Of a stretch of DNA of 36,443 bases, positions 22,041-36,443 are shown piece by piece. The notes under the pieces were generated by a model. It was given only the letters and a program-made list of their open reading frames with translations. It was not told the origin of the DNA and searched no databases. The first letter of the stretch is position 1, and every line of letters starts with the position of its first letter. The stretch comes from Limisphaerales bacterium (GTDB lineage: Bacteria > Verrucomicrobiota > Verrucomicrobiia > Limisphaerales > SIBE01), in assembly GCA_044225505.1 (NCBI GenBank), contig JBGAIN010000079.1, positions 1 through 36,443 of the forward strand, read 5' to 3'. The position numbers and the translations under genes are program-made.

Positions 22041-24698
22041 CTACTTTCTAAGTCGGTAAAACTTCTTGGCGAGAGTCAACGAGACATTGAAGGGACTTAC
22101 CGCTGCGGCCACGCTCGTCCAAGGCCCAATGACCGCGTCGGCTTGCTCGAGTGCCCCCTCTGTCCAGCTTAGGCTCACGCTCGAAGCAGATTTTGCGAAG
22201 GCCAAGCGGGGACGCTCTGCGACGCGACCGATTACCTCCAACTCGGTCATTTGCAGCGCGTAGTCCTGAACCGGATTCTCGAGCGACTCAATCCGAACCC
22301 ACTGGCCCTGAAACTGGCCGGATGGATTCAAGTCTTTGGTTAAGGTAACCATTACGCCCTGCCCCACCCCAGGATTACTTCCGTCTGTGTACAGATCAGC
22401 ACTCCAAACCGTGTCACCGATAACACCTCCATTGTCCTTGTGAACGGAAACGCGGAAATTCGTTAGTCGCTCAGGGCAACAGCTATCTTGTCGCGGGTAA
22501 ATGTCGATGTGATCGATGGTGACTAATTCCCCCATATTGACTTCGTAAGCGAAGCCCGGGGCAATCTGGGCGTCGCCGTGAAAGACTCCTTTTCGGTCGC
22601 CATCGACAAGCCAACTGATGGGCCATCCTGCATACAACGGCCGATTCGAACTCGCGGTTCCCCCTCGGGCATAATTATAGTCGAAGACCAGCGTTGCCGC
22701 TTTGCTTTCGACACTCGTTGCCCCTGGGTAAGAGACAACAACGCTGAATTTGGCGTCTTGATCAGCCGAGACGAGGACAGGTGTCGTATACTTGTCGGCG
22801 TTCGCTCCTGGAATCGCCGTCCCATTACGTTTCCATTGATACGTGAGGAGTTTCGGATCGCCATTCACCACGCTGGCGGTGACGCTAAACGTTGCGACCC
22901 GCCCAGGAGCTCCTAAACCATTCGCCGGTTCCGCATTGATCGCAACCTTTGCCTGCGTCTCGAGCAAAGTGCCAAAGACGACAACCTCGCTCATCTGCAG
23001 CGCATAGTTTTGCACGGGATCTTCTAACGATAGAATGCGAATCCATTGTCCCTGAAATGTCCCCGCGGCGTCCAAATCCTTGGTCACTTTGACAACAATT
23101 CCTGGGCCCGAGCCTGGATTCGAACCGTCGGTGAACAGGTCCGTATGCCATACCGCGTCTCCAATGGCACCGCCATTGTCCTTATGGATGGAAACGCGGA
23201 AATTGGTGAGCCGCTCCGGACAGCAGCCATCTTGACGCGGATAAATCTCGATCGAATCGAAATTCACCGGTGATCGCAAATTGATGTCATAGGCGAAACC
23301 CACCGCGAGATCCGTATTGCCGTGCAGGACGTTAGCTAGATCCCCGTCGACCACCCAAGTGATCGGCCAACCAGCATACAAATCGCGATTCGAAAACGCC
23401 AGAGCGCCCAGCGCATAGTCGATTTTCAACCCGGCCTCTTTTGATGTCACCGGAGCCACTCCGGGATAGGAGGCGATAACTCGGTATTTGTTGTTTGCGT
23501 CGGAGAGCGTGATGGCCGCGGTCGTGAACGTGGCATTGGTTGCGCCGGGCAGATCGACGCCATTAAGTTGCCATTGATAGCTCAAGCGCGCGTTGTCGCC
23601 ATTGATCAAGTTCACCGTCGCGGAATACTTGGCATTCCCGCCCAACCCGACCAAGGCAGAACGTGGATCTTGTGTCAGAACGAGCTTAGTCCCCGCCTCC
23701 GGAACCCCAAACGCCTCGAGTTCGGAAATCTGCAAGGCGTAACTTGAGATAGGGTTTTCCAAGCTGGCAACTCGAATCCACTGTCCTTTGAACTGTCCTG
23801 CTGGATTCAGCGCCGCCTGGATGACATCTTTGGCGCCAGGTTCTGACCCCGGATTGCTCGCATCCGTGTGCAGATCCGCCGTCCACACGGCGTCACCAAT
23901 TGCCCCATTGTTATCCTTATGAATCGATAGCCGATAATTCGTGAGCCGTTCCGCACAGCACCCGTCTTGTCGGGCGATCACATTGATATGATCGAAGGTC
24001 ACCGCGGTTCCGAGATCAATCTCGTAGGAAAATCCTGGATCAATCGTTTCGGTTCCATGGATAAACGAGCCTCGGTCGCCGTCTACCAAAGCACCCGGGA
24101 CTTGCGTCCCAAAGAGCGAACCTTTAACCGCCACACGAGCACCGGCAGCGCGGTTTACTTGCTCCGGCAGCACCGTTGCCAAGACCTCTAGCTCGGTCAT
24201 CTGCAAGGCATAGGCTGGCACGGGATCGGCCAGGGCTAAAACGCGGACCCATCGCGCCGTCTGAGCTGCGGGAAGCGTCACGATCACCAACGAACCAGCG
24301 CTCGATCCGGCGTTCGTCCCATCCGTAAATTTATCTGTCCCCCAGACTTCCGTTCCAATCTTCCCGGTTCCATCGTCATTGTGAACGGAAACATGTATCT
24401 TGCTGAGTCGCTCTGGACAACAGCCGTCCTGGCGCGGATAGATTCGCAGTTCCGTAATCTCATACGGCTTTCCCAAATCGACGGAATAAGCAAACCCTGC
24501 GTCTAGAGTAGCGTCGCCGTGGAAAACGCCACTGCGATCGCCGTCGATCAGTTTCTTAATGTCCCAATTGCCTGGGCCCCAGAGCGGGCCGCTGGCGAAG
24601 GCGGTACCGTTGGGAGCTACATTCGCGGTTTCGGCCATACCGCTAAGTTGGAGCATGCCTGCCGATGCAAGAGCGAGGAGAGTTGCGATATTACGCAT
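22041..24698 (-). CDS. Secreted multidomain protein: 4 F-type lectin (fucolectin/discoidin-fold) domains, 2 Ig-like domains, C-terminal FYRL-type tail
   Basis: Signal peptide from ATG 24698. Four repeats with hhDGD, H-x28-RQD(G/S)CC(P/A)ERL and LQxxExE; two YQW..NG..(L/I)PGA Ig-like segments. Confidence 0.88.
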   Translation of the reverse strand: MRNIATLLALASAGMLQLSGMAETANVAPNGTAFASGPLWGPGNWDIKKLIDGDRSGVFHGDATLDAGFAYSVDLGKPYEITELRIYPRQDGCCPERLSKIHVSVHNDDGTGKIGTEVWGTDKFTDGTNAGSSAGSLVIVTLPAAQTARWVRVLALADPVPAYALQMTELEVLATVLPEQVNRAAGARVAVKGSLFGTQVPGALVDGDRGSFIHGTETIDPGFSYEIDLGTAVTFDHINVIARQDGCCAERLTNYRLSIHKDNNGAIGDAVWTADLHTDASNPGSEPGAKDVIQAALNPAGQFKGQWIRVASLENPISSYALQISELEAFGVPEAGTKLVLTQDPRSALVGLGGNAKYSATVNLINGDNARLSYQWQLNGVDLPGATNATFTTAAITLSDANNKYRVIASYPGVAPVTSKEAGLKIDYALGALAFSNRDLYAGWPITWVVDGDLANVLHGNTDLAVGFAYDINLRSPVNFDSIEIYPRQDGCCPERLTNFRVSIHKDNGGAIGDAVWHTDLFTDGSNPGSGPGIVVKVTKDLDAAGTFQGQWIRILSLEDPVQNYALQMSEVVVFGTLLETQAKVAINAEPANGLGAPGRVATFSVTASVVNGDPKLLTYQWKRNGTAIPGANADKYTTPVLVSADQDAKFSVVVSYPGATSVESKAATLVFDYNYARGGTASSNRPLYAGWPISWLVDGDRKGVFHGDAQIAPGFAYEVNMGELVTIDHIDIYPRQDSCCPERLTNFRVSVHKDNGGVIGDTVWSADLYTDGSNPGVGQGVMVTLTKDLNPSGQFQGQWVRIESLENPVQDYALQMTELEVIGRVAERPRLAFAKSASSVSLSWTEGALEQADAVIGPWTSVAAAVSPFNVSLTLAKKFYRLRK

Positions 24699-24934
24699 AG
24701 AATCCAAGGTCGAATAAACGTTAAGGTCGCCTTTCGAGTCTCAAATCCAACCCCATGGAAAACGAGACTCGCGGATACGTCGGTGAACTGGTTGAAGCGG
24801 ATTTAAGAGACCAAAATCGTGGTTGGCAAGATGAATCACTCTGCCACCAGTAACCGAAGATAATCAGAGTGGCAAATTGTTGCCCGCTTTTCGAATAAGC
24901 GCGGCCACACCGAATCCTACGGCCGGGCCGATGC

Positions 24935-27900
24935 TCAACGTCGAGGCGCTTTGCGGGCGAAGGTCCGGGCGCCAACCCAGCGGGTATTGTATTTCTTCAT
25001 CCACCAGGTTCGCTCCTCGGAGACGGCGAGCGTCTCGGCGTAGCGCTGGTCGTCCATGCCGTGAAATGGCATTGGCTCCACAGTCGTCCCGGCAAGCACA
25101 TGAAAATCGGCGTCCTTGTCCCATCCGACAGAATACAGGAAGTAATCGCGGACATACCCAGCGGGCTTTGGCGGGAGAGTTTTAATGGCGAAAGACAAGG
25201 TCAACTCGTCACCGCCGTTCAGCAGAACCAAGGCATCGTCGCTCTTCGCAACCAGTTCATCGACCGATCCGTAGCGAGTACACCAGCCTTCCGGAGTAAT
25301 CAACCATCGGGGCTGGGAATAGCTTCTGCGATAGTCCGGCGTTAACGGCTCATACCAAGGGCGGTCCTCAAATTCGCTGAATCCACGCCAATGCAAATCA
25401 GTGCCGGTGGGCGCGATGAATTTCGTCAGCGCCGTTGTTTGATCTCCACGGTCGAACAGCGCAATGCGATCCCAGTGGATTTCAAACGCCGCGGTGAGCC
25501 GGAGTCGCTGGGCACCGACCGGGAGTTTGCCTAGCAGATCCACCAAAATCGTTTTTGTTTTGCCGGCGGGAGCGCCCACCTGCACGTCGACTTTGTGCCA
25601 CTGTCCATCCGCTGTCTCCACTTCCAGCGTTGGAAAGGGAAATGGCAAATTCGGATCGTGCGATGCCGCGATATTCGCCGTTCCACCGCCAAAGCGGAGC
25701 CACCCGGTCAGCGCCAGGACGAGCGGACGATCCAAAGCGAGCGACCCAAAATCGAGCGTGACACCATGCGGCTCGGCCAAGCCGCGCAACTGGGGGACGC
25801 GCAGTTTCTGAGGGGAAAGTAATCTGCCATCCGTCTCTCGAACCAAGTCCGTCACATCCAAGCCGTCCAATCGACTTGCCTGACGGAGGGGATAGCGATT
25901 CGCCAAAAGGCGGAGTTCACTTGGTGGGAAGGGTTTTCCGGGAAGCAGTCGATCGGTGGAATGCACCTCGGTCGTCGCTGGATGGTCGACGACCACCAAC
26001 TTGGCTTCGTCCAGATAGAGAACCTCCCTCAACTCTTCCGTGATTTGAAGTTCAATGTGATCGCCGCGCGGCTGAACCATGCCGTCGTTCCCGAGCCAAA
26101 CGAGTTCATCGGGGTCCGCTTCGATCATCCGCCCCTCAGCGACGGGAAGCCCGGCAGGAGATGCGCCCAAGATGTCGGTGACAAATCGAAAGCGCTGTCC
26201 ATCCCAAGTGTACAGATATGGGCACGACCCAGTCGGCAAGAGCAACTCGAGCATGACCAAGGGAGAGCGGGAATCGACTGGCACTTCCGCCGACGGTGCC
26301 GCCACGTCCACCCAATGAATATTGATGGCATCCACCTGCTTCCTCGGGCCGACACCAATTTCAATCGGCAATTCGGAAACCGTGCGAATCGTGCGCCACT
26401 TCCCAGCGGTCACTTCCACACGCACGCCCAACCCGCTGAAATTCGAGCGGTTTCCGACGAGGCGCAGCTTGAGTTGTTGATTGGCATTGCCTCCTTCGTT
26501 GCGCAGCAATTGCAGGCCACGAGCGCCGAGGCTCGCTAGGAAATCGGTGTCTCCATCGTTATCAAAATCCGCGAACACGACTTGATCGACCGTGCCAGAA
26601 ACCAGCTTGTCCAACCCCAATTCAGACGTCATCTCCTTGAATCCCGCTTGCCCGAGATTTCGCCAGACGCGAATCCCATTGCCCCGAGCGCAAATATCCA
26701 GCCACCCATCGTTATCATAATCGACCAAGCTCAACCCACTCACCGCGAAACCACCTGTCGTTAAGGTCAGTGAGTTGGTAATACCGCCAAACCGACATTC
26801 CAAGCCCCGGTCAGTGGCAATGACGACGTCGGTCCGCAAGTCATTGTTGAGATCGCCCATGGCCGCCGCCGTCCCGGCACTCCAATTGGCCGGTGAATTG
26901 GAGCTGGTCAACGTCCCCCCGCGCTGTTTGAGCAGGAGTAACGGGGATTGTCCCTGGCGCACGACCAATAAGTCCATGATGTCGTCGTTATTCCAGTCAT
27001 CGACAATCAATTGCTGGGCGCTCGTCACGGAAGCGGGAACTCCCGAAGTGGCTGTGGTGTCCTTGAAATACATGTTCCCAAGGTTTCGCAGAACGCGGAC
27101 TGTATTCGTCTGCGGCGTCACCAGCAGCAAGTCCAGCTTGCCGGTGAAGTCCAGGTCAACGAGCGCTCCATCGATTCCCGGACAATCCTTCAAGTTCGAA
27201 AAAGCCGTCGCCTCGGTCGCAGCCCCGTTGGTTGCAAATCTAAAGGCTTGCAGGCCCTTATCCCCGACCACGATGACATCTTCGAAACGGTCGTTGTTCA
27301 AGTCCCCCACCAGACAGCGCGAATAGTGTGCGCCCGGCACCGCGGGCAACAAATCCCCTTCCACTTGGAAGGTTGAATTGCTGTTGATCAGCAATCGAAA
27401 TCCGGCATCGCCCTCCGCGACGAAGATGTCGTTTGAGCCTCGATGGTTCACGTCGAGAATGCCAATCGGACCGCGGAACGTCGACGCGCCCTCGCCAAAA
27501 AAACTCCGAGTTGAGTCGGTGAAGCGAACAGAAACGCCGTTGGCTGGAGGTTGCTCGATATCGAACGGCACATGCACTTGGGTATAAACGCAGCGTTCCA
27601 GCGCGGTCACATCCGCGGAATAGTTCGGACGCGCCGCGATCAACTTTTGATACTCGGTCAGGATTTCATTCGCCTGGTCGGTTTGGCCGAGTCGAACTAG
27701 CACCTGGCCGAGGCTATAATGCGAGGCGAGGTAAAGCGGAGCGCTATGATCTTCAAATTGGATCACCTCACGAAATTGTTCGGCAGCTTCATCGAGCTTA
27801 TTCCATCCTTGGAACGCCCGGCCCAATTGAAAGCTAACCGCATTCACCTTCGGGTCGATCTCCTTGCAGACCTGAAGCTCCTGGACAGCTTGTTCGAACT

Positions 27901-28267
27901 GGCTAAGCCGGAGATACGCACAACCCAAAATGTAGTGAGCCGCTGCCGAACCCGGGTCCAGTTGCAGAACTTCTCGAGCTTTCGCCGCCGCTTCTTCAGA
28001 ACGTCCCGCCAGGAGCAATGCATTGGCTACGTTCACCTGGAGGTCAAGCTGGACCGGATCCAAGGCAGATGCTTTGGTAAACGTCTCCAGCGCCTTTAGA
28101 GCATTCCCTGGTCATAGTAGTTCTTGCCAACATTCAGAAGGCGCGTGAACTGGTCAGGCACGCGGGCGAACTTGCCAGTAGCCGAAAAGGAATGCGACAG
28201 CCACCGCGGCAAGAATCGCCGCAAAATAACAGAGTGTCCGCGAAGTCGATGAACGCGAGGGGCTCAA
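24935..28267 (-). CDS. TPR + FG-GAP/VCBS + ASPIC/UnbV (CRTAC1-like) protein; 5' end interrupted by two compensating indels
   Basis: Main ORF 24935-28063 has TPRs, DxDNDGxxD Ca loops, GVRVEV ASPIC segment and GSCPYLY. An in-frame TTG at 28267 gives an N-terminal hydrophobic anchor. Confidence 0.85.
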
Positions 28268-28276
28268 AAACCCACC

Positions 28277-30067
28277 CTACTCTTTCTTGGGCTCTTGCTC
28301 GTCGAAAAGGCCGGGAGCAACCCGATGCACGAGAGCTTTGGCGCGGGCGAGAATCTCAGTGCCAGACTCGCAGCTCAACCCGAATTCCGCGAGGCTTTGT
28401 GCTTCACTAAGCTTTAGGCGCCGGATCAAGAATTTAAGCTGGGGAATAGACGGTGGCGACGCACTGAGTTCGTCGACCCCCAACCCCAATAACAACGGGA
28501 CGTAAACGGGATCCCCTGCCATTTCGCCACAGACGCTCACTCGAATATCCTGACGATGAGCCGAATCTACAGTCGTCTTAATGAGGTTGAGAATCGCAGG
28601 ATGCGCTGGTTCGTACAGGTGAGCGATCTTTTCATTCAGACGGTCCACCGCTAACGTGTATTGAATCAGGTCGTTCGTCCCAATGCTGAAAAACTTGGCC
28701 CGCTTCGCCAAGGCCGTCGCGGTCAACGCCGCCGACGGGATCTCGATCATGGCTCCAACTTCGAGTTCTTCGTTGAAAGGCACTTTCTCAGCGCGCAATT
28801 CAGCCCGGCACTGGTCGAGCAATTCGTTGGCCTTGGTCAACTCATCCAAACAAGAGATCATTGGGTACATGATCTTCACCGCACCGTCGACGCTGGCACG
28901 CAGGATCGCTCGGAGCTGATCGCGGAATAGGTCTCTCTCTTCGAGGCAAAAACGAATGGCGCGCCAGCCCAAAAATGGATTCATCTCTGGTGGCAACTGA
29001 AGGTGCGAGAGGAATTTATCGCCGCCAAGATCCAGAGTCCGAATAACGACCGGATGAGGCTTTAGAGCCGCCGCCACTGTTTTGTATGCCTGGTATTGCT
29101 CTTCTTCGCTCGGAGAAGTGTCGCGATTAATAAAGAGATATTCGGTTCGAAATAGGCCGACGCCGTCCGCCCCGTAAGCAGTGACACTTTCCGTATCGCT
29201 GGCTTGCTCAATATTGGCAGCCAATCGCACTCGGAATCCGTCCAACGTCACGGCTGGCTTGTCGATGACTTCGCGAAGCCGATCTTGTAAGTTAATCCGG
29301 CGGCGAACTAGTTGACCGTATTCAAAAAGAGTTTGATCTGTCGGATTGACCACCAGATAGCCGTTGAACCCATCGAGGAGGACGTAATCCCCGGTGGCCA
29401 GATGGCGACTCGCGTCGTGCAAGCCGACTACAGCCGGAATTTGCAGCGATCTTGCCATGATCGCCGTGTGGGAAGTCGTGCTCCCGATGTCCGTCGCAAA
29501 TCCGAGTACCTTGGTGCGATCGAGCGTTGCGGTCAGCGAAGGCGATAAATCGTAACTGACCAATACGCAGGGCTCCTGCAAATGGCGCAGGTCCATGTCG
29601 TGGGGCCGATTCAGCAAATTGTTCAAGACCCGCGCGGTTACATCCCGCATATCCGACGCCCGCTCACGCAGGTACTCGTCGTCGATCGCCTCGAGAGTCG
29701 TGGCATACTTTTCTGCCACTTGATGAAACGCCTGCTCCACATTGATCTTCTGACGTTCCATCAACCGAGTCACTTCATCGATTAGGGTCCGATCCTCCAA
29801 AACAAGTAAGTGCGCATCAAAGATCCCAGCATCCTCCGCACCCATCGCCTGACCGACTTTCCGCTGCACCTCGAGAATCTGATGCCGAGTTTGGACAAGC
29901 GCCTTCTCCAAGCGTTGCCATTCCCGCGGCAGATCCGCCTCCGCGATGGAATGGGCAGGGAGTGCGGTGCTGCTCTTGCCTAGAACCAGGATCTTGCCTC
30001 GACAAACGCCAGAGGAGACGGGAATTCCCCGTAACACTCGTTCCCCCGCTTTTGAGGAGTCTGGCAT
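28277..30067 (-). CDS. ptsI: Phosphoenolpyruvate-protein phosphotransferase (PTS Enzyme I)
   Basis: Phospho-His motif TSHTAIMAR, GLFRTE, RTLDLGGDK, NPFLGWRAIR, SIGTNDLIQY, CGEMAG. No N-terminal GAF domain. Confidence 0.97.
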   Translation of the reverse strand: MPDSSKAGERVLRGIPVSSGVCRGKILVLGKSSTALPAHSIAEADLPREWQRLEKALVQTRHQILEVQRKVGQAMGAEDAGIFDAHLLVLEDRTLIDEVTRLMERQKINVEQAFHQVAEKYATTLEAIDDEYLRERASDMRDVTARVLNNLLNRPHDMDLRHLQEPCVLVSYDLSPSLTATLDRTKVLGFATDIGSTTSHTAIMARSLQIPAVVGLHDASRHLATGDYVLLDGFNGYLVVNPTDQTLFEYGQLVRRRINLQDRLREVIDKPAVTLDGFRVRLAANIEQASDTESVTAYGADGVGLFRTEYLFINRDTSPSEEEQYQAYKTVAAALKPHPVVIRTLDLGGDKFLSHLQLPPEMNPFLGWRAIRFCLEERDLFRDQLRAILRASVDGAVKIMYPMISCLDELTKANELLDQCRAELRAEKVPFNEELEVGAMIEIPSAALTATALAKRAKFFSIGTNDLIQYTLAVDRLNEKIAHLYEPAHPAILNLIKTTVDSAHRQDIRVSVCGEMAGDPVYVPLLLGLGVDELSASPPSIPQLKFLIRRLKLSEAQSLAEFGLSCESGTEILARAKALVHRVAPGLFDEQEPKKE

Positions 30068-30143
30068 GAAAAATTATTAACCACGATCGCTCCCTTTGAA
30101 AATCAAATTCTTCCCCAGGTGAAGAAATCGCGTGCCCCCGTGG

Positions 30144-30162
30144 CTGGATTAAGCTAATCCAG
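30144..30162. promoter_or_regulatory. Perfect 8-bp inverted repeat in the ptsI/aroK divergent spacer
   Basis: CTGGATTA-AGC-TAATCCAG, ending 4 nt before the aroK GTG. Confidence 0.45.
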
Positions 30163-30166
30163 ACCA

Positions 30167-30736
30167 GTGCAAGAGCTCCGGCAGGTCGAAAACATTGCAT
30201 TGGTAGGATTCATGGGGACTGGCAAAAGCTCAGTCGGACATGCGATCGCGAGTATCCTCCACTTTCACTTTGTCGACACAGACGAACTTATCGAACGTCA
30301 GCTTCGCAAACGAATCTCCGAGATCTTCCAGGAAGAGGGCGAAGAACAATTTCGCAAACACGAGCGGTCCGTCGTCGCGGGCTTGGAATCGATCCAGAAA
30401 CATGTCATTGCGACCGGGGGAGGTGTGGCTGTCGATCCCCGCAATCTTGTGAGTTTAAAGCGGCACGCCCTGATCGTCTGCCTCTGGGCATCAGCCGAAA
30501 CCGTCTGGGAAAGAGTCCGTCATCAGAGCCATCGCCCCTTGCTCAACGGCGCCGAGCCACTGCTTAAAATTCAACGGTTGCTCGCCCAGCGCGAACCGTT
30601 CTATCGTCAGGCGGATGTTCTCGTGAATACCGAATTACGTTCCGTCCGGGAGGTTGCTCTCCAAGTTGTCCACCAATTTCGGCTCGTCCAAGACCGCGCT
30701 GCCCATGAGATCGATCGTCCAAGCCCTGGCCCGTGA
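30167..30736 (+). CDS. aroK: Shikimate kinase
   Basis: GFMGTGKS P-loop, DTD, GEEQFRKHE, ATGGG, RPLL, R.PFY. Confidence 0.96.
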   Translation: MQELRQVENIALVGFMGTGKSSVGHAIASILHFHFVDTDELIERQLRKRISEIFQEEGEEQFRKHERSVVAGLESIQKHVIATGGGVAVDPRNLVSLKRHALIVCLWASAETVWERVRHQSHRPLLNGAEPLLKIQRLLAQREPFYRQADVLVNTELRSVREVALQVVHQFRLVQDRAAHEIDRPSPGP

Positions 30737-31805
30737 GCTCGGGTTTGACGCCTGCCGCGTCACCACTGCCTCCACCCCGGAAAGCGCGGCCCACTTCGAG
30801 CGCTGGCTCGAAGAGGGGTGTCATGGAGAAATGGCTTATCTGCAACGGAATGCAGACAAACGAATCCACCCTCAGAGCGTACTGGCAGGCGCCAAGTCGA
30901 TCATCACCCTCGCGGCGAGCTACGGATCCCCGGAACCCATCTCACGGCGCCATCCGGGCACTTCCATCGCCGCAGATTTCCCAGGAATTCAGGAAACACC
31001 ACGGGCGCCACATGGCGTCATCGCTCGCTACGCCCGGTATTCGGACTACCACGACGTCTTGAACGAGCGGCTTCGAAGCCTTACAGAAAAACTCAAGGAG
31101 CTAGGTGGGCCTGAAACCAAATCGTTGAGTTACGTTGATACCGGCCCATTGCTGGAACGAGACATCGCCCAGCGCGCCGGAATAGGCTTTGTTGGCAAAC
31201 ACACCAACCTCATCGGCCGACAACTGGGCAATTGGTTCTTCCTCGCAGAAATTATTACAACCGTTCCACTTGCACCCGATTTGCCTGAGAAGAATCGCTG
31301 TGGTTCCTGCGTACGCTGTCTGACCGCATGTCCCACCCAAGCGATTACTCGCCCATTCCACCTCGACGCTCGACGCTGCATCTCCTACCTAACGATCGAG
31401 CTCAAAGGGCCGATCCCGGTGCAGTTCCGACGGGCCATCGGCAATCGAATCTTTGGATGTGACGACTGTCTGGAAGCTTGCCCTTGGAACCGGTTCGCGC
31501 GTGCAGCCAAATTGATGCAACCCCATGCACGCCCTGACTTGCAGCAACCTGAGTTGTTCGAACTGCTCCGCCTGGATGACGCCGCATTCAAGAGCCGCTT
31601 CCGTGGGACACCCGTGGAACGGAGCAAACGCCGCGGTTTGCTCCGTAATGTCTGTGTGGCTTTAGGGAACGTTGGGAACTCGTCCGCATTGCCCGCACTC
31701 GAAGCGGCGGCGCAAGATTGCGAACCTCTGATTGCGGAACACGCCGTGTGGGCTTTGAGCGAGATCCGGAGTCGACTAAGCCCTATCAACCATGTAAATC
31801 TGTAA
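30705..31805 (+). CDS. queG: tRNA epoxyqueuosine(34) reductase
   Basis: ARYA..DYH, VDTGP.LER, CGSCVRCLTACP, CISYLTIE, GCDDCLEACPWN, C-terminal HEAT-like repeat. Overlaps the aroK 3' end by 32 nt. Confidence 0.96.
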   Translation: MRSIVQALARELGFDACRVTTASTPESAAHFERWLEEGCHGEMAYLQRNADKRIHPQSVLAGAKSIITLAASYGSPEPISRRHPGTSIAADFPGIQETPRAPHGVIARYARYSDYHDVLNERLRSLTEKLKELGGPETKSLSYVDTGPLLERDIAQRAGIGFVGKHTNLIGRQLGNWFFLAEIITTVPLAPDLPEKNRCGSCVRCLTACPTQAITRPFHLDARRCISYLTIELKGPIPVQFRRAIGNRIFGCDDCLEACPWNRFARAAKLMQPHARPDLQQPELFELLRLDDAAFKSRFRGTPVERSKRRGLLRNVCVALGNVGNSSALPALEAAAQDCEPLIAEHAVWALSEIRSRLSPINHVNL

Positions 31806-31855: not shown

Positions 31856-32530
31856 CTATTCCGGAACTTTCAACAACTCGTCCGACGTCCACTGGCTGCT
31901 GCGCGACGCCGTTTCCGCACGAACGGCTTTGACCTGCTCCGGTGTGATTGCCGGAGCTTTATTGCCCCACGCCTGACGGACGTAACTTAGCACAGCGGCC
32001 AGGTTCTCGTCATCGCTGAGCGGCGGTCCGCCGCCAAACGCCGGCATCTGGACACCCGTCCAAACCTGCCCTTTGACCTGGATATTCCCGGTCAGCCCAT
32101 GCAATGGAATACGAATCAACCGATTTGGAGAGCCTAGAACCCACTCGGACCCGACCAACGGTGGAAATTGACCAGGCGCCCCAAGCCCGCTTTGCTGGTG
32201 GCAAGCTGCACAGATCAAAGCGTAAACCGATTCGCCTTTGGCGACCAACATTTCCGAGCCCGATTTTGGCTGAAGATCCGAAAGTTCCTTGAACGATCGG
32301 TATGGACCGTAAACCCGATTGTTGAATCCACCGCCGTACCGGTCGAGATGGAGCATCCCCCAGTAAACGAGCGCAATCATCAGAACGAACAGCCAAGCGG
32401 GCATTGCTGCCGAATCCACTTGCGGCTCGATTTCGTCGATCGATGCCAAAGACTTTGCCTGCACCACCGAGGTCGGAGCGGGTGCAGCGCCATTGCCACC
32501 GGGACGTTTGTTGTCAGGTTTCTGCTTCAT
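31856..32530 (-). CDS. Membrane-anchored monoheme cytochrome c
   Basis: One TM helix, CAACH, FPPL, distal Met in MPAF, AAVLSYVR..WGN. ATGA overlap with the ccoO-like stop. Confidence 0.92.
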   Translation of the reverse strand: MKQKPDNKRPGGNGAAPAPTSVVQAKSLASIDEIEPQVDSAAMPAWLFVLMIALVYWGMLHLDRYGGGFNNRVYGPYRSFKELSDLQPKSGSEMLVAKGESVYALICAACHQQSGLGAPGQFPPLVGSEWVLGSPNRLIRIPLHGLTGNIQVKGQVWTGVQMPAFGGGPPLSDDENLAAVLSYVRQAWGNKAPAITPEQVKAVRAETASRSSQWTSDELLKVPE

Positions 32531-33473
32531 GGCGGCCCCCCAGGACTGGCAGCTGGGCCGTTCGTAACCGTTGATACCGTATTTGTGTCAGCCGCCGGGC
32601 CATTGGTCGTCGAGGAAGATGATACCAACGGCGGAGCTGGCGCCTCAAACAGGGGCATTTCAGCACGCAAACTCAAAAGGTAGGCCACGAGTGCCCGGGC
32701 CTCCCGGGTGGGGATCACTTCGCGGTCCCCCGAGATCGGCAGCGCCTCTGAACTCGGACGGGAACCGCGCGGTTTGATCGTAAAAAGGTACGGATATCGA
32801 GGCATGATCGACCCGGCGACCTGCGACTTGGGATCATAAAGATGGAGTAAATGCCAGTTCGCGTCTGGCTTCCGGAGCCCTACGTTGGTCAGGTCAGGTC
32901 CGAGCCGAGCCGAGCCGAGCATTAACGGAGTGGCATATAGGTAATCGCACGCGGGGTGGCATATAGGTAATCGGCACCGACGGACAAGCGGGTTCCCCAT
33001 CCACGCTGAATGTCAGGACCGGTCGGAATGACTCGAATGGCCGCCTCTGCACCCGCCGTGCTTAGGCTCTTCTGGGCTGCGTCAGCAGCCGCTTTCCGGG
33101 TGACTCGCAACACCGTCGCCGGCCGGCTGCTCAAGAGCCGCTCCGCCTCACCGGCGGATAGACCACTCCGGAGTTGCACGATCGCTTCGATCACCGCGGG
33201 CTGATTCGTGCCGGGGTCCGTCACCACGACTGCCAGTTCTGCGCCCTCCTGGCGAATGATCTGGGTGTGGCAATAGGCACATCCGTTCGCACGATAAACT
33301 TCGCGACCGAGCGCTGCGACACCGGGAGTCGCCGTCGGATACAAGACGTTCGTTGGAGGAACATTAGTGGCCTGTTGCCCACCCAACTGCAATTGAGGCG
33401 TAACCACCATGCCTAACCAAGATAAGGCCATGGCCCCAAGCAAACCCAAAAAGATAAAGGGTCCAAACCTCAT
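32527..33473 (-). CDS. ccoO: cbb3-type oxidase subunit II-like cytochrome c (CcoO-like) with L7/L12-like insert; frame broken by a 26-bp duplication
   Basis: GREVY..NGCAYCHTQ in the upstream frame; GS.R.GPDL, WH..HL..P and SIMP.Y in the downstream frame. Removing 26 bp at ~32930-32955 restores a 306-aa ORF. Confidence 0.85.
32930..32973. repeat. Direct repeat GTGGCATATAGGTAATCG x2 (period 26 bp) inside ccoO
   Basis: Copies at 32930-32947 and 32956-32973. Confidence 0.95.
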
Positions 33474-34951
33474 GCCGAACGCCTCCCCGCGCGAACGGGA
33501 GTCGCGCGACTTCCGGCGTTTGACCAAAGCGCACAAACGGGACAACAGGCCATGAGAATTCGCAGAAGCTGAACAAAAAAGATAACGTACGCCACGAGCA
33601 AGAGCAGTACCCCGAGAGAGTTAATCCCAAGGAATGGCACGGTTCGGCGGACGACCTGGACAAAGTCGATTCCAGGATCGTTGATACCCGTGCCCTGGAG
33701 CAAGCCTCCCACGAGCAAAGCGATCCCACTCGCCGCAGTCCCCACGGTGGCCATCCAAAAGTGCAACCGGGTCGCTGTAAGACGAGGAAGCTCTGGGCAT
33801 CCCGCCACTTTCGGAGCCACATAGTAAACTGCTCCGGCCAGCGCCATGGCCAAAAACCCATGCAACCGAAGTTGCGTGACGCCTTCATTGTAAATCGTAA
33901 AAGAGGTCAACTGGCTTACTGCTGGGTGGGACGCAGCCGCTGCCAACAGAGCGACCGCAACATAAACAACGGCAGCCATCAGCGTGAACCGGAGCGTCGG
34001 GTCTGCTTTTTGCAGCGACCCAGCCTGCGCCGTCTGGAACCAACTCAAGCCAAAGGCGAAGATCGGCAAAAGCAAGATTACCCGCGCCACCACCCCAACA
34101 CTACCCATCCAATTCGGAACGGGCTCCCCGACGCGCACTCCTCCCCAACCGCCAAGCAGCACGAAGAACCAAAACCCGAACAGAATCAAACCGCGACTGT
34201 ATAATGGTCGTCCCGTTAGTTTTGGCAGGAAATAGAAGATCGAGGCCAACCCGAACGAGGACGCCGCGACTTCAAAGAGATTGTGAGCATACCATCCATT
34301 AACGACCGCTTGCATGACCCCTCGAACCGGTGCCATGACCAAAAGAATCTGTGCGGTCGCATAGATCCACGGAAACCAGAGCAACGCGGCGAGCAGAAAC
34401 CACTGCGAAACGAATAAGTCCCGGTTGTTCCGCCCGTGAAGATTGATCAGAGCCCAAGCCGCCACCAGGAGATAGGCAAGAAACATTACGGGAGATGCCG
34501 TCCTGGGGATTTCCATCCATTCGTAGCCCGTGCTGTCCCCTGCCAAAATCGAAATCAATCCGATCGCCAACCCTAAATTCCAAAGGACTGTTCCAGCCCC
34601 AATGATCCAACCGCCTTGCAGTCGATTACGGCCTAGTCTTGAGGAGATCCAAAGCGCGAGGCCTAATCCCGTCTGAATAACAAAACCGTAGATAAACGCA
34701 TTGCTGCTGAACGGGCGTACCCGGCCGTAAGTCAGCCAGGAAGCTCCTGCGATAAAGCCTGACGCATGATTTTTGATTGCGGTCAGAAGTCCAAACAAAC
34801 CGCTCCAGGCTAGCCAGCAAGCGCCAGCCGCAAAGAGCAATAACACTGGCCAACGGCAGGAACGATCAATCTCCCCCACCGTCAAAGTCGTGACGCCCCC
34901 TGCCGAGGGGGAAACGACTGTCGAGGCCAGAGGTGATGAGGGAGAACTCAT
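33470..34951 (-). CDS. CcoN-like (heme-copper oxidase subunit I fold) protein lacking most metal ligands
   Basis: ~12 TM; YGRVRP, EWME, FVSQW, WYAHN, YFLPK..GRPLYS, YY..P, HFW match CcoN. The helix II His, helix VII HH and helix X HxH are absent. Confidence 0.88.
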   Translation of the reverse strand: MSSPSSPLASTVVSPSAGGVTTLTVGEIDRSCRWPVLLLFAAGACWLAWSGLFGLLTAIKNHASGFIAGASWLTYGRVRPFSSNAFIYGFVIQTGLGLALWISSRLGRNRLQGGWIIGAGTVLWNLGLAIGLISILAGDSTGYEWMEIPRTASPVMFLAYLLVAAWALINLHGRNNRDLFVSQWFLLAALLWFPWIYATAQILLVMAPVRGVMQAVVNGWYAHNLFEVAASSFGLASIFYFLPKLTGRPLYSRGLILFGFWFFVLLGGWGGVRVGEPVPNWMGSVGVVARVILLLPIFAFGLSWFQTAQAGSLQKADPTLRFTLMAAVVYVAVALLAAAASHPAVSQLTSFTIYNEGVTQLRLHGFLAMALAGAVYYVAPKVAGCPELPRLTATRLHFWMATVGTAASGIALLVGGLLQGTGINDPGIDFVQVVRRTVPFLGINSLGVLLLLVAYVIFFVQLLRILMACCPVCALWSNAGSRATPVRAGRRSA

Positions 34952-34980
34952 GAAACAAAGACGCACTATCCGGTAACAAC

Positions 34981-35361
34981 CTATTCAAATGCCGACGGTT
35001 TTTCCGGCTCTTTCGGTGGCGGCGGCGGATTGGCCTTTTCGACGCGCGCCAGCAGATTAGAACGCCCCACTGACGGGTTCTTCCATTCGCGGACGACGAG
35101 ATCCATCGCCCGTGCAATCGGCAATCGGACCAATCCTTTTGTCTGATCTTGCCAGCCGTAGTTATTGAGCGCCTCCGTGCCGGCCGCGTTAATGTCCCGC
35201 AGGTTTTTGATGCGCTCATCTATCCGGGCCTGGTTGACCGTGGCCGGTTGGGTGCGGACGTACAACAGCCAGGCCAAGGCGCCCACAATTAACAGCGCGC
35301 CTAACACGGCCACAAAGTAAACCGCGACAGAAATGATCCTTGATTCAGGTCGAGAGTTCAT
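34981..35361 (-). CDS. Single-TM protein downstream of actF (ActG-like)
   Basis: ATG 35361, N-terminal TM, LNNYGWQD...G.VRLPIARAM motif of the kind seen in small genes following actF, Pro-rich tail. The ActG label rests on position and motif memory. Confidence 0.65.
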   Translation of the reverse strand: MNSRPESRIISVAVYFVAVLGALLIVGALAWLLYVRTQPATVNQARIDERIKNLRDINAAGTEALNNYGWQDQTKGLVRLPIARAMDLVVREWKNPSVGRSNLLARVEKANPPPPPKEPEKPSAFE

Positions 35362-35404
35362 GTTCGTCACAACTCGATTTGCCAGGCCACGCGACCGCGC
35401 CAAA

Positions 35405-36443
35405 TCACTTGCCACCTCCACGTGCCGGCAATGGCTGCGCGGAAGCGCTGACAGGCGGGACATATACTTTCATCGTCTCTGCAAACCGAGGATCTTTCTG
35501 CGGGAATGCCGGATGCGCGGCAAAATAGCGCAAGAAGACCGTGGTCAAAACCCCGCCAATAAAAGCGAGACAAGAAATATCCAGCCAATGCAAAACCCAA
35601 CCGTCTGGATGGAGGACAGGCATGATGTTGAACGATAAATCGGTGAAATGCATCAACCATGCCCAGACAAAAATAAAGCCCATGACCGACAATTTGAGTT
35701 TAAAATCAATCCGCAGCAACAAGAGGAACGGCAAGAAGAAGTGACCAAATATGATCACCAATCCGACATACCACCAACTCCCCTTTTCTCGCACCACATA
35801 CCAGAAGGTTTCCTCTGGCAGATTCGCGTTCCAAATAATGAAATACTGGGAAAAGTGGATATAGGCGTAAAACACCGTAAACGCCAATTGCAGCGATCCC
35901 AGAAAGTAAAACGTCTCCTCGTGCACCACTTCGCGCAACGGGCCAGTCCGCTGCAAAACGAGGGTAATCATGTAAACCGTGGCAATCGTTGTCCAGACGC
36001 TTCCAGCAAAGTAATAAACGCCATACATGGTCGAGAACCATTGGTGCTGCAGCGCTTTCATCCACATGATCGCCGCCAGGGTCAATGTGATCGCGAAGAA
36101 GAACATTCCCACCGCAGACCATTTGCGGAGCTTAAAGGTGCACAGCGCGGCTCCTGTCTCGTCCTGTCGCAGTGACCACGAGCGAAGCTGATAAGAGAAG
36201 AGGGTCCAGACGCCAAAACAAAATGCGGCTACGACATAGAACATCGTCTTCGTAAACAAGGGCTGCTTCGCGTGCAACGCATGGTCCAGGTGCGGATTCA
36301 GATCCATCCAAGGATAAATCGGAATCGCGGGTGCAAGCAGGGCAATGGGAATAAACAGAACGGCCATCACGGGTAGAAGAAACGCCATATGCTCTTCCAA
36401 CCGCCGGATCGCCACTGACCAACTGGCGTCAAACAAATGATGG
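35405..36443 (-). CDS. actF: Alternative complex III subunit ActF (partial, start beyond window)
   Basis: Multi-TM NrfD-like protein with W...IRR..E, WFSTMYG, FSQYFIIWNANLPEET, P..DPR. Confidence 0.9.
   Translation of the reverse strand, partial: HHLFDASWSVAIRRLEEHMAFLLPVMAVLFIPIALLAPAIPIYPWMDLNPHLDHALHAKQPLFTKTMFYVVAAFCFGVWTLFSYQLRSWSLRQDETGAALCTFKLRKWSAVGMFFFAITLTLAAIMWMKALQHQWFSTMYGVYYFAGSVWTTIATVYMITLVLQRTGPLREVVHEETFYFLGSLQLAFTVFYAYIHFSQYFIIWNANLPEETFWYVVREKGSWWYVGLVIIFGHFFLPFLLLLRIDFKLKLSVMGFIFVWAWLMHFTDLSFNIMPVLHPDGWVLHWLDISCLAFIGGVLTTVFLRYFAAHPAFPQKDPRFAETMKVYVPPVSASAQPLPARGGGK

Follow-up and report, generated by a model that had tools for sequence, protein, structure and literature searches.

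A conserved oxidase-like subunit without cofactor ligands in the alternative complex III operon of Verrucomicrobiota

What is left for the catalytic subunit of an oxidase to do once the residues that bind its cofactors have gone? This question is raised by a stretch of 36,443 nucleotides, called here the window, which is one whole contig (GenBank JBGAIN010000079.1, assembly GCA_044225505.1) of a Limisphaerales bacterium of the phylum Verrucomicrobiota. Five open reading frames (ORFs), all on the minus strand, succeed one another in the order actF-actG-ccoN*-ccoO*-cytochrome c: the last genes for alternative complex III (ACIII), then a module resembling a cbb3 oxidase. Ligand-less forms of the module are marked by asterisks (N*, O*, P*) and intact ones by primes (N', O', P'). 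An earlier note, drawn from the sequence alone, had proposed that this module is catalytically dead and repurposed as a heme-less scaffold docking heme-c subunits onto ACIII. The analysis described here bears out, across the family, that the ligand-less subunit is conserved, under purifying selection, tied to ACIII and accompanied by intact heme-c partners. The module is real, conserved and mis-annotated, and its mode of action is probably that of the frame which bears the cytochromes in a supercomplex of ACIII and an oxidase.

Fold and cofactor sites of CcoN*

CcoN* (33470..34951, minus strand; 493 amino acids, about 12 long helices) is a ligand-less C-family heme-copper oxidase subunit I, matched by PF00115 with 120 bits; against TIGR00780 it scores 124 bits, for a cut-off of 583. 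Its AlphaFold model has a predicted local distance difference test (pLDDT) score of 93 and its top Foldseek match is 3mk7_A, the CcoN of Pseudomonas stutzeri (TM-scores 0.85/0.89); the 12-helix fold of a subunit I is retained. Alignment with the same protein reveals how little of the active site is left: H60 is replaced by S, H257 by R, H258 by V or a gap, H345 by V, H347 by Q, and the cross-link tyrosine Y251 by G. The positions H60, H345 and H347, which are S, V and Q in CcoN*, are taken here to be those of the heme b and b3 ligands. Of the CuB histidines H207, H257 and H258 (numbering of PMC3578206), CcoN* has the first only, as H223 (codon 34283..34285, minus strand). This residue, the last of the six metal-site histidines, is itself poorly conserved, being found in 61 homologs among the best 120 of 225 and in 24% of 58 aligned ligand-less rows; such variability rules it out as a conserved ligand. 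The description of the subunit as "His-less" in the earlier note is therefore right for five of the six metal histidines and inexact for H223.

The note had also reasoned that close homologs with their histidines in place would make this copy a simply decaying one. Among the best 120 of 225 homologs, all six histidines and the tyrosine are present in 17 and the other 103 retain zero to four histidines; the first homolog with all six ranks 62nd, so that this ground for refutation falls away. Of the 150 best representatives at 50% identity, 142 are full-length, and they distribute as 81 with none of the histidines, 44 with one, 11 with two, one with three, one with four and four with six.

A comparison of the 58 ligand-less rows with 18 intact ones indicates that the losses fall on positions of the cofactor sites and of the proton channel, and that many of the structural Trp, Gly and Pro residues persist. 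Tyrosine at the Y251 position occurs in none of the 58. The residues T215, Y223, S240 and Y317, the K-channel-like polar residues of the P. stutzeri structure, are present in 100% of the intact rows and kept in 19, 45, 7 and 48% of the ligand-less rows, respectively. No conserved replacement ligand was found: the only histidine columns conserved at 90% or more are H62 and H397, neither at a ligand position. Nitric oxide (NO) reductases have three histidines plus Glu/Asp for the non-heme metal and two heme histidines, and there is no conserved histidine or acidic residue at these places. Judged by these residues, CcoN* is a member neither of the cbb3 O2 reductases nor of the NO reductases, and the N* protein would be devoid of heme.

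The possibility that the same genome conceals a catalytically intact N' was rejected, as a tblastn search found only C160 and the canonical C189. The separate intact ccoN that the note had suggested looking for does exist elsewhere in this genome, as a canonical ccoNO fusion in a ccoNO-P operon with its own maturation genes. The genome also encodes a qNOR and an aa3 oxidase; subunit II of the latter carries CuA and is without heme c.

The two partners of CcoN* are heme-c proteins. CcoO* (32527..33473, minus strand; PF02433) is a membrane-anchored monoheme cytochrome c. The last gene of the run (31856..32530, minus strand) encodes a monoheme cytochrome c of 224 amino acids, with a single transmembrane helix, a c552-type domain and a CcoP-like N-terminus (TIGR00782, E-value 9.5e-7; 3mk7_C). 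The absence of ccoP stated earlier must be qualified accordingly: with this N-terminus, a subunit of P type is not, strictly speaking, absent. A tandem duplication of 26 nucleotides (nt) near 32930 (32930..32955; a 17-mer repeated at distance 26) breaks ccoO into two frames in the window. These extra bases are missing from the contigs of three DNA runs (X1, X4, X6) of three studies; one of the runs may be the source of the window. The split is hence an assembly artefact, and a genuine frameshift is ruled out. Without the duplication, ccoO becomes a single ORF of 306 amino acids, the heme motif CxxCH being at position 65 and the axial Met at 215. The heme motif and distal methionine claimed for both heme-c subunits are thus found in the window and also across the family, with CxxCH invariant in the aligned rows (51/51 for O, 54/54 for P) and the axial methionine present in 48/51 and 54/54.

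Upstream, actF (35405..36443, minus strand) encodes membrane subunit F of ACIII, its 5' part lying beyond the contig end, and matches 6f0k_F of Rhodothermus marinus with an E-value of 1.7e-58. The next gene (34981..35361, minus strand; 126 amino acids, a single transmembrane helix) had been called actG-like. A profile built from 47 such proteins confirms this identity, with the ActG chain 8k9e_G (E-value 3.5e-5) as its sole match at E < 0.01. The other act genes, anticipated outside the window, are found on contig C252 of the same genome, which carries actA-E and breaks off inside actE; the actABCDEF(G) gene set of ACIII is thus present in this genome, and the full operon can be observed in relatives. 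The architecture described in the note is likewise all present, with ATGA overlaps at 33470-33473 (ccoN*/ccoO*) and 32527-32530 (ccoO*/cytochrome c) and a convergent queG 50 nt away from the end of the five-gene run.

Distribution, selection and repeated loss

The homolog matches carry the names Verrucomicrobia, Pedosphaera and Limisphaerales. Sixty regions were hand-picked across the score range, so that the counts are not those of a random sample, and 53 of them comprise an ACIII operon followed by actG-N-O-cytochrome c. In the order to which the window belongs, the subunit is ligand-less at 19 of 19 ACIII loci. The 34 loci of the rest of the class are divided into 14 intact and 20 ligand-less ones: outside the order, intact orthologs are found at this very place in the operon.

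A second gene follows the same division. A small ccoS gene, for cofactor insertion, is located between actG and N at 14/14 intact loci and 0/39 ligand-less loci, identified by TIGR00847 at an E-value of 0.004, below its cut-off, and by a motif written after the intact loci had been seen. The profile of these 14 proteins gave one weak match elsewhere, at a locus that also bears a canonical cbb3 operon. Applied to 80 further loci (L118-L197, overlapping the first set in part), it detected ccoS at 5/5 intact and 0/75 ligand-less ones. The gap between actG and ccoN* in the window is 29 nt, which leaves no room for the ccoS of the intact operons. CcoS is described as helping the heme b-CuB centre to form (PMC12648545). 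At all 80 further loci, actG adjoins N. A fusion of N* with O* exists in four of the 150 representatives, all ligand-less and one irregular.

After its CxxCH, CcoO* contains an insert of 73 residues recognized as a ribosomal L7/L12 C-terminal domain (33021..33251, minus strand; PF00542 with 29.1 bits, cut-off 25.9). The profile of this insert finds the rplL of the same genome (E-value 6.4e-14), and the model of an ortholog matches 1ctf with a TM-score of 0.92, a root-mean-square deviation of 1.1 A and 37% identity. It is present in 7/18 rows of the window's order and 0/33 other rows (alignment A4), and in 57 O frames among the 80 further loci, in two copies in 8 of them. As a guess, this domain might serve on the periplasmic side as a docking surface or spacer.

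Several loci depart from the common arrangement. In a genome of the same genus as the window, the ligand-less copy at ACIII coexists with an intact N'-O'-P' operon (L036:9599-15262, G002:C18), which stands alone, has a copper-type P-ATPase gene after it and was possibly re-acquired. ActG is fused at L074 and L084 to a monoheme cytochrome c domain, between actF and ccoN*. At L089 the act operon is split by a gap of 7 kb between actF and actG; a nos cluster at such a place is reported in the preprint of Awala et al. Two complete ACIII-N* operons (L037 and L038) are found in one genome bin (G012), either by duplication or in a mixed bin. L116:3947-7125 encodes a very divergent heme-copper subunit I of 444 amino acids with 5/6 histidines by pairwise alignment (H207 and Y251 unmatched), then a membrane protein-CcoO-cytochrome c fusion; ABC-transporter genes precede it. 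The intact N' subfamily reaches the Comamonadaceae, and P0282, from a cluster named Ottowia/Alicycliphilus, is an intact N' with an N-terminal extension that, judged by eye, is CcoS-like.

Selection on the N gene was estimated by a simple counting method, as the ratio of non-synonymous to synonymous substitution rates (dN/dS). Seven ligand-less pairs gave 0.134, 0.132, 0.097, 0.259, 0.157, 0.246 and 0.128; two intact pairs gave 0.13 and 0.14, a third being saturated. The check for conserved ligand loss and purifying selection suggested by the note thus came out positive in 7/7 pairs (0.10-0.26) and 19/19 loci of the order. Moreover, frames are unsplit for N at 77 of the 80 further loci and for O at 76 of the 79 where it was found, with N identities of 36-57%. 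At the level of sequence, then, ccoN* is not decaying.

The number of losses depends on the tree consulted. On a tree of ActC and ActF (50 rows), at least nine state changes are counted and a single ligand-less clade is rejected (p 5.6e-8); one genus contains both states. The tree of N itself (80 rows, leaving out the long branch L048) requires three changes and is compatible with a single ligand-less clade (approximately unbiased test, p 0.055); all 81 rows give four changes. The case for repeated loss consequently rests on the ActC and ActF tree, because the N tree keeps the single clade. As the trees disagree, how many losses took place is uncertain, and transfers or gene exchange within the operon may have occurred.

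The link with ACIII was examined by hand counts of N* and ActC in 41 related genomes, 37 of which have N*. All 34 genomes with an ActC of the window's own type (73% or more) have N*, and G013 and G022 have neither. N* is lacking in G011 (67% complete) and G018; it is present in G034 and G040, fragmented assemblies in which ActC is unmatched. An A-type oxidase is encoded in 33/37 N* genomes, and coxA or coxB lies after the module at nine loci (L062, L068, L072-74, L078, L087-89). The CoxB of the window's genome and the nine encoded next to the module contain CuA without any CxxCH. In Methylacidiphilum caldifontis the module is transcribed, with 110/83 transcripts per million for ccoN, 239/81 for ccoO and 245/115 for ccoP (PMC11102522, dataset 7). 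A complex prediction of N* residues 22-470 with its own ActC and ActG scored 0.00 and was used neither way.

The stretch 22041-31805 of the window is occupied by unrelated genes, which encode an F5/8-type repeat protein (22041-24707), a TPR plus FG-GAP protein (24935-28063), PTS enzyme I (28277-30067), shikimate kinase (30167-30736) and QueG (30654-31805). A scan for promoters and terminators returned the same counts as in shuffled sequence. The RNA run X18 covers part of actF only (35942-36312), a small share that is uninformative on ccoN*. Directly upstream of actA in the same genome lies an ORF that we take to be transposase-like (L115:6862-8214, plus strand).

What the module may do

The favored explanation starts from an ancestor in which the genes of ACIII would have been followed by those of a divergent three-subunit C-family oxidase (N', O', a monoheme P', and ccoS). 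Many lineages, among them the whole order of the window, would then have seen N' deprived of hemes b and b3, of CuB, of the cross-link tyrosine and of the proton-channel residues, and ccoS deleted. The empty 12-helix N* would have been retained as a membrane scaffold, binding O* and P* and holding these two heme-c subunits beside ACIII. Since the cofactors are gone from N and both cytochromes are kept, electrons must move on elsewhere: those from quinol would exit ACIII through ActA/ActE to the hemes of O* and P*, then reach separately encoded acceptors, chiefly the aa3 oxidase, in which subunit II carries CuA and no heme c of its own. The docking on ACIII and this electron route are both suggested by gene order, co-occurrence, fusions and analogy. 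The probability that N* is a cofactor-free scaffold holding two cytochromes as an electron exit of ACIII is put at about 60%. A more ambitious formulation would be a wholly cofactor-free heme-copper pseudoenzyme, arisen repeatedly in Verrucomicrobia as the electron-exit arm of ACIII and turning a hard-wired ACIII-cbb3 supercomplex into a multi-acceptor hub through two tethered cytochromes, one with a captured L7/L12 docking surface; it is given somewhat less than even odds.

A number of observations weigh against the scaffold. N* evolves faster than ActF in 6/6 measurable pairs. N is split at 3/80 loci and O at 3/80, and O is short at L088, through assembly error or real decay. No A-type oxidase was seen in 4/37 N* genomes, nor, in G029 (83% complete), any heme-copper oxidase besides N*. 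G100 and G229 keep the module though their five A-type CoxB matches bear their own heme c, so that replacing an absent c domain cannot be its whole role. The evidence for all family members lies at the level of genes and transcripts, the latter from one relative and not from the ccoN* of the window.

A first alternative, improbable but the best of the four considered, is that the partner of the module is a terminal oxidase, either aa3 or canonical cbb3, and not ACIII; it would act there as a cytochrome c donor fixed in the membrane or as a dummy partner, its place in the operon being a matter of co-regulation. The coxA or coxB found after the module at nine loci, with CoxB lacking heme c, would suit this proposal. 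It accords poorly with G013, which has two A-type oxidases and neither ACIII nor N*, so that N* tracks ACIII, with the adjacency of actG at 80/80 loci, and with an aa3 encoded elsewhere in the window's order.

Hardly behind it in likelihood comes a purely structural or assembly subunit, by which N* would stabilize the membrane arm of ACIII with little flux through the cytochromes. Loss of N* without ACIII was never found among the relatives searched, and W101, N125, F193-P194-W195 and Q214 are common to intact and ligand-less proteins and different in canonical CcoN, as such a role might require. Idle cytochromes would however be difficult to reconcile with heme motifs that are near-invariant in both proteins across the class, and the ACIII structure of R. 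marinus, as presented in PMC5928083, is without such a subunit.

Rather unlikely is a new activity of N*, as a conduit for ions or small molecules through the emptied cavities or as a site for another cofactor or a quinone. The complete helical bundle, the stray histidines of some subclades (up to 3/6 positions) and Glu147, present in 78% of ligand-less rows, leave room for it, but residues of the former sites vary freely, the equivalent of S240 is Ala in 83% of these rows, and conservation is also lacking at the remaining polar positions of the channel. A decaying pseudogene held by its operon position, which the ccoO frameshift and the few split genes of relatives might evoke, is already largely refuted and very improbable, given that the frameshift is an artefact, that 77/80 N frames are whole at such low identities and that dN/dS is well under 1.

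Published annotations and known systems

The scaffold interpretation bears directly on the literature. A C-type oxidase beside ACIII is treated as functional in the review PMC8498564, where it is described in methanotrophs of the Verrucomicrobia and in Opitutaceae only, and likewise in PMC6688271 and PMC10205796 and in the preprint of Awala et al. (supplement rows, PMC11102522). CCG92522.1 of Methylacidiphilum fumariolicum, WP_242524344.1 of M. caldifontis and ACB77202.1 of Opitutus terrae are nevertheless identical to ligand-less proteins of the surveyed loci. In each of three genomes of the methanotroph group, the other PF00115 matches are two proteins of A-type, one or two of B-type and a single one of NOR-type; motifs were checked for six of these matches, that of the NOR in one genome. 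For M. fumariolicum, the count of C-family oxidases given in the table of Murali et al. is zero (PMC11214002, supplement), which fits the ligand-less finding; the portions of that article consulted make no mention of this family. No published description of the ligand loss was found in the literature searched, most subscription papers being beyond its scope.

In many Verrucomicrobia, a ligand-less subunit has thus probably been wrongly counted as a high-affinity oxidase. Papers on Methylacidiphilum and databases name the gene cbb3, and microaerobic capacity would be inflated in surveys of soil and freshwater Verrucomicrobia. If N* is a wholly cofactor-free pseudoenzyme, Methylacidiphilum would be without a cbb3 oxidase and its high O2 affinity would need another source. 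New here are an ancestral form, intact and at the same place in the operon, its repeated loss along with ccoS, and the consequence for the published Methylacidiphilum annotations. For a core respiratory enzyme, these operons amount to a large natural experiment: one gene arrangement contains either an intact or an empty oxidase, with ccoS only beside the intact one. Cultured strains (M. fumariolicum, O. terrae and, as a control, the intact Nibricoccus aquaticus) make the handing on of electrons by ACIII directly testable.

The known systems place the module in perspective. With the cbb3 oxidase CcoNOP of P. stutzeri (3MK7/5DJQ) it shares the N fold, a monoheme CcoO, a CcoP-like third subunit and the N-O-P order. 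It differs in an N* without 5/6 histidines and the tyrosine (about 22% identity), in the absence of ccoS, ccoQ and ccoGHI from the operon, in a monoheme P and in the L7/L12 insert of O. The intact N' of N. aquaticus (ATC62872.1) and its Comamonadaceae relatives are much closer, at about 41% identity, with the same operon position and partners and shared family residues; they retain all six histidines and the tyrosine, with ccoS upstream. In the ACIII-caa3 of R. marinus and the ACIII-aa3 of Flavobacterium johnsoniae, oxidase genes also follow the act genes. In the former, the oxidase is described as docking beside ActC, with ActE handing electrons to its heme-c domain (PMC5928083), and the intact Verrucomicrobial operon reads as a C-family version of this arrangement. 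The docked subunit I of those supercomplexes is catalytic, whereas the one encoded here belongs to the C family and is without cofactor ligands. The heme-copper variants described by Murali et al. 2024 (gNOR, eNOR, sNOR, nNOR and a putative N2O reductase) similarly have the subunit-I scaffold with an altered active site. Among them gNOR is presented as the first in which even a single histidine of the active site is replaced (PMC11214002); N* is without nearly all of them.

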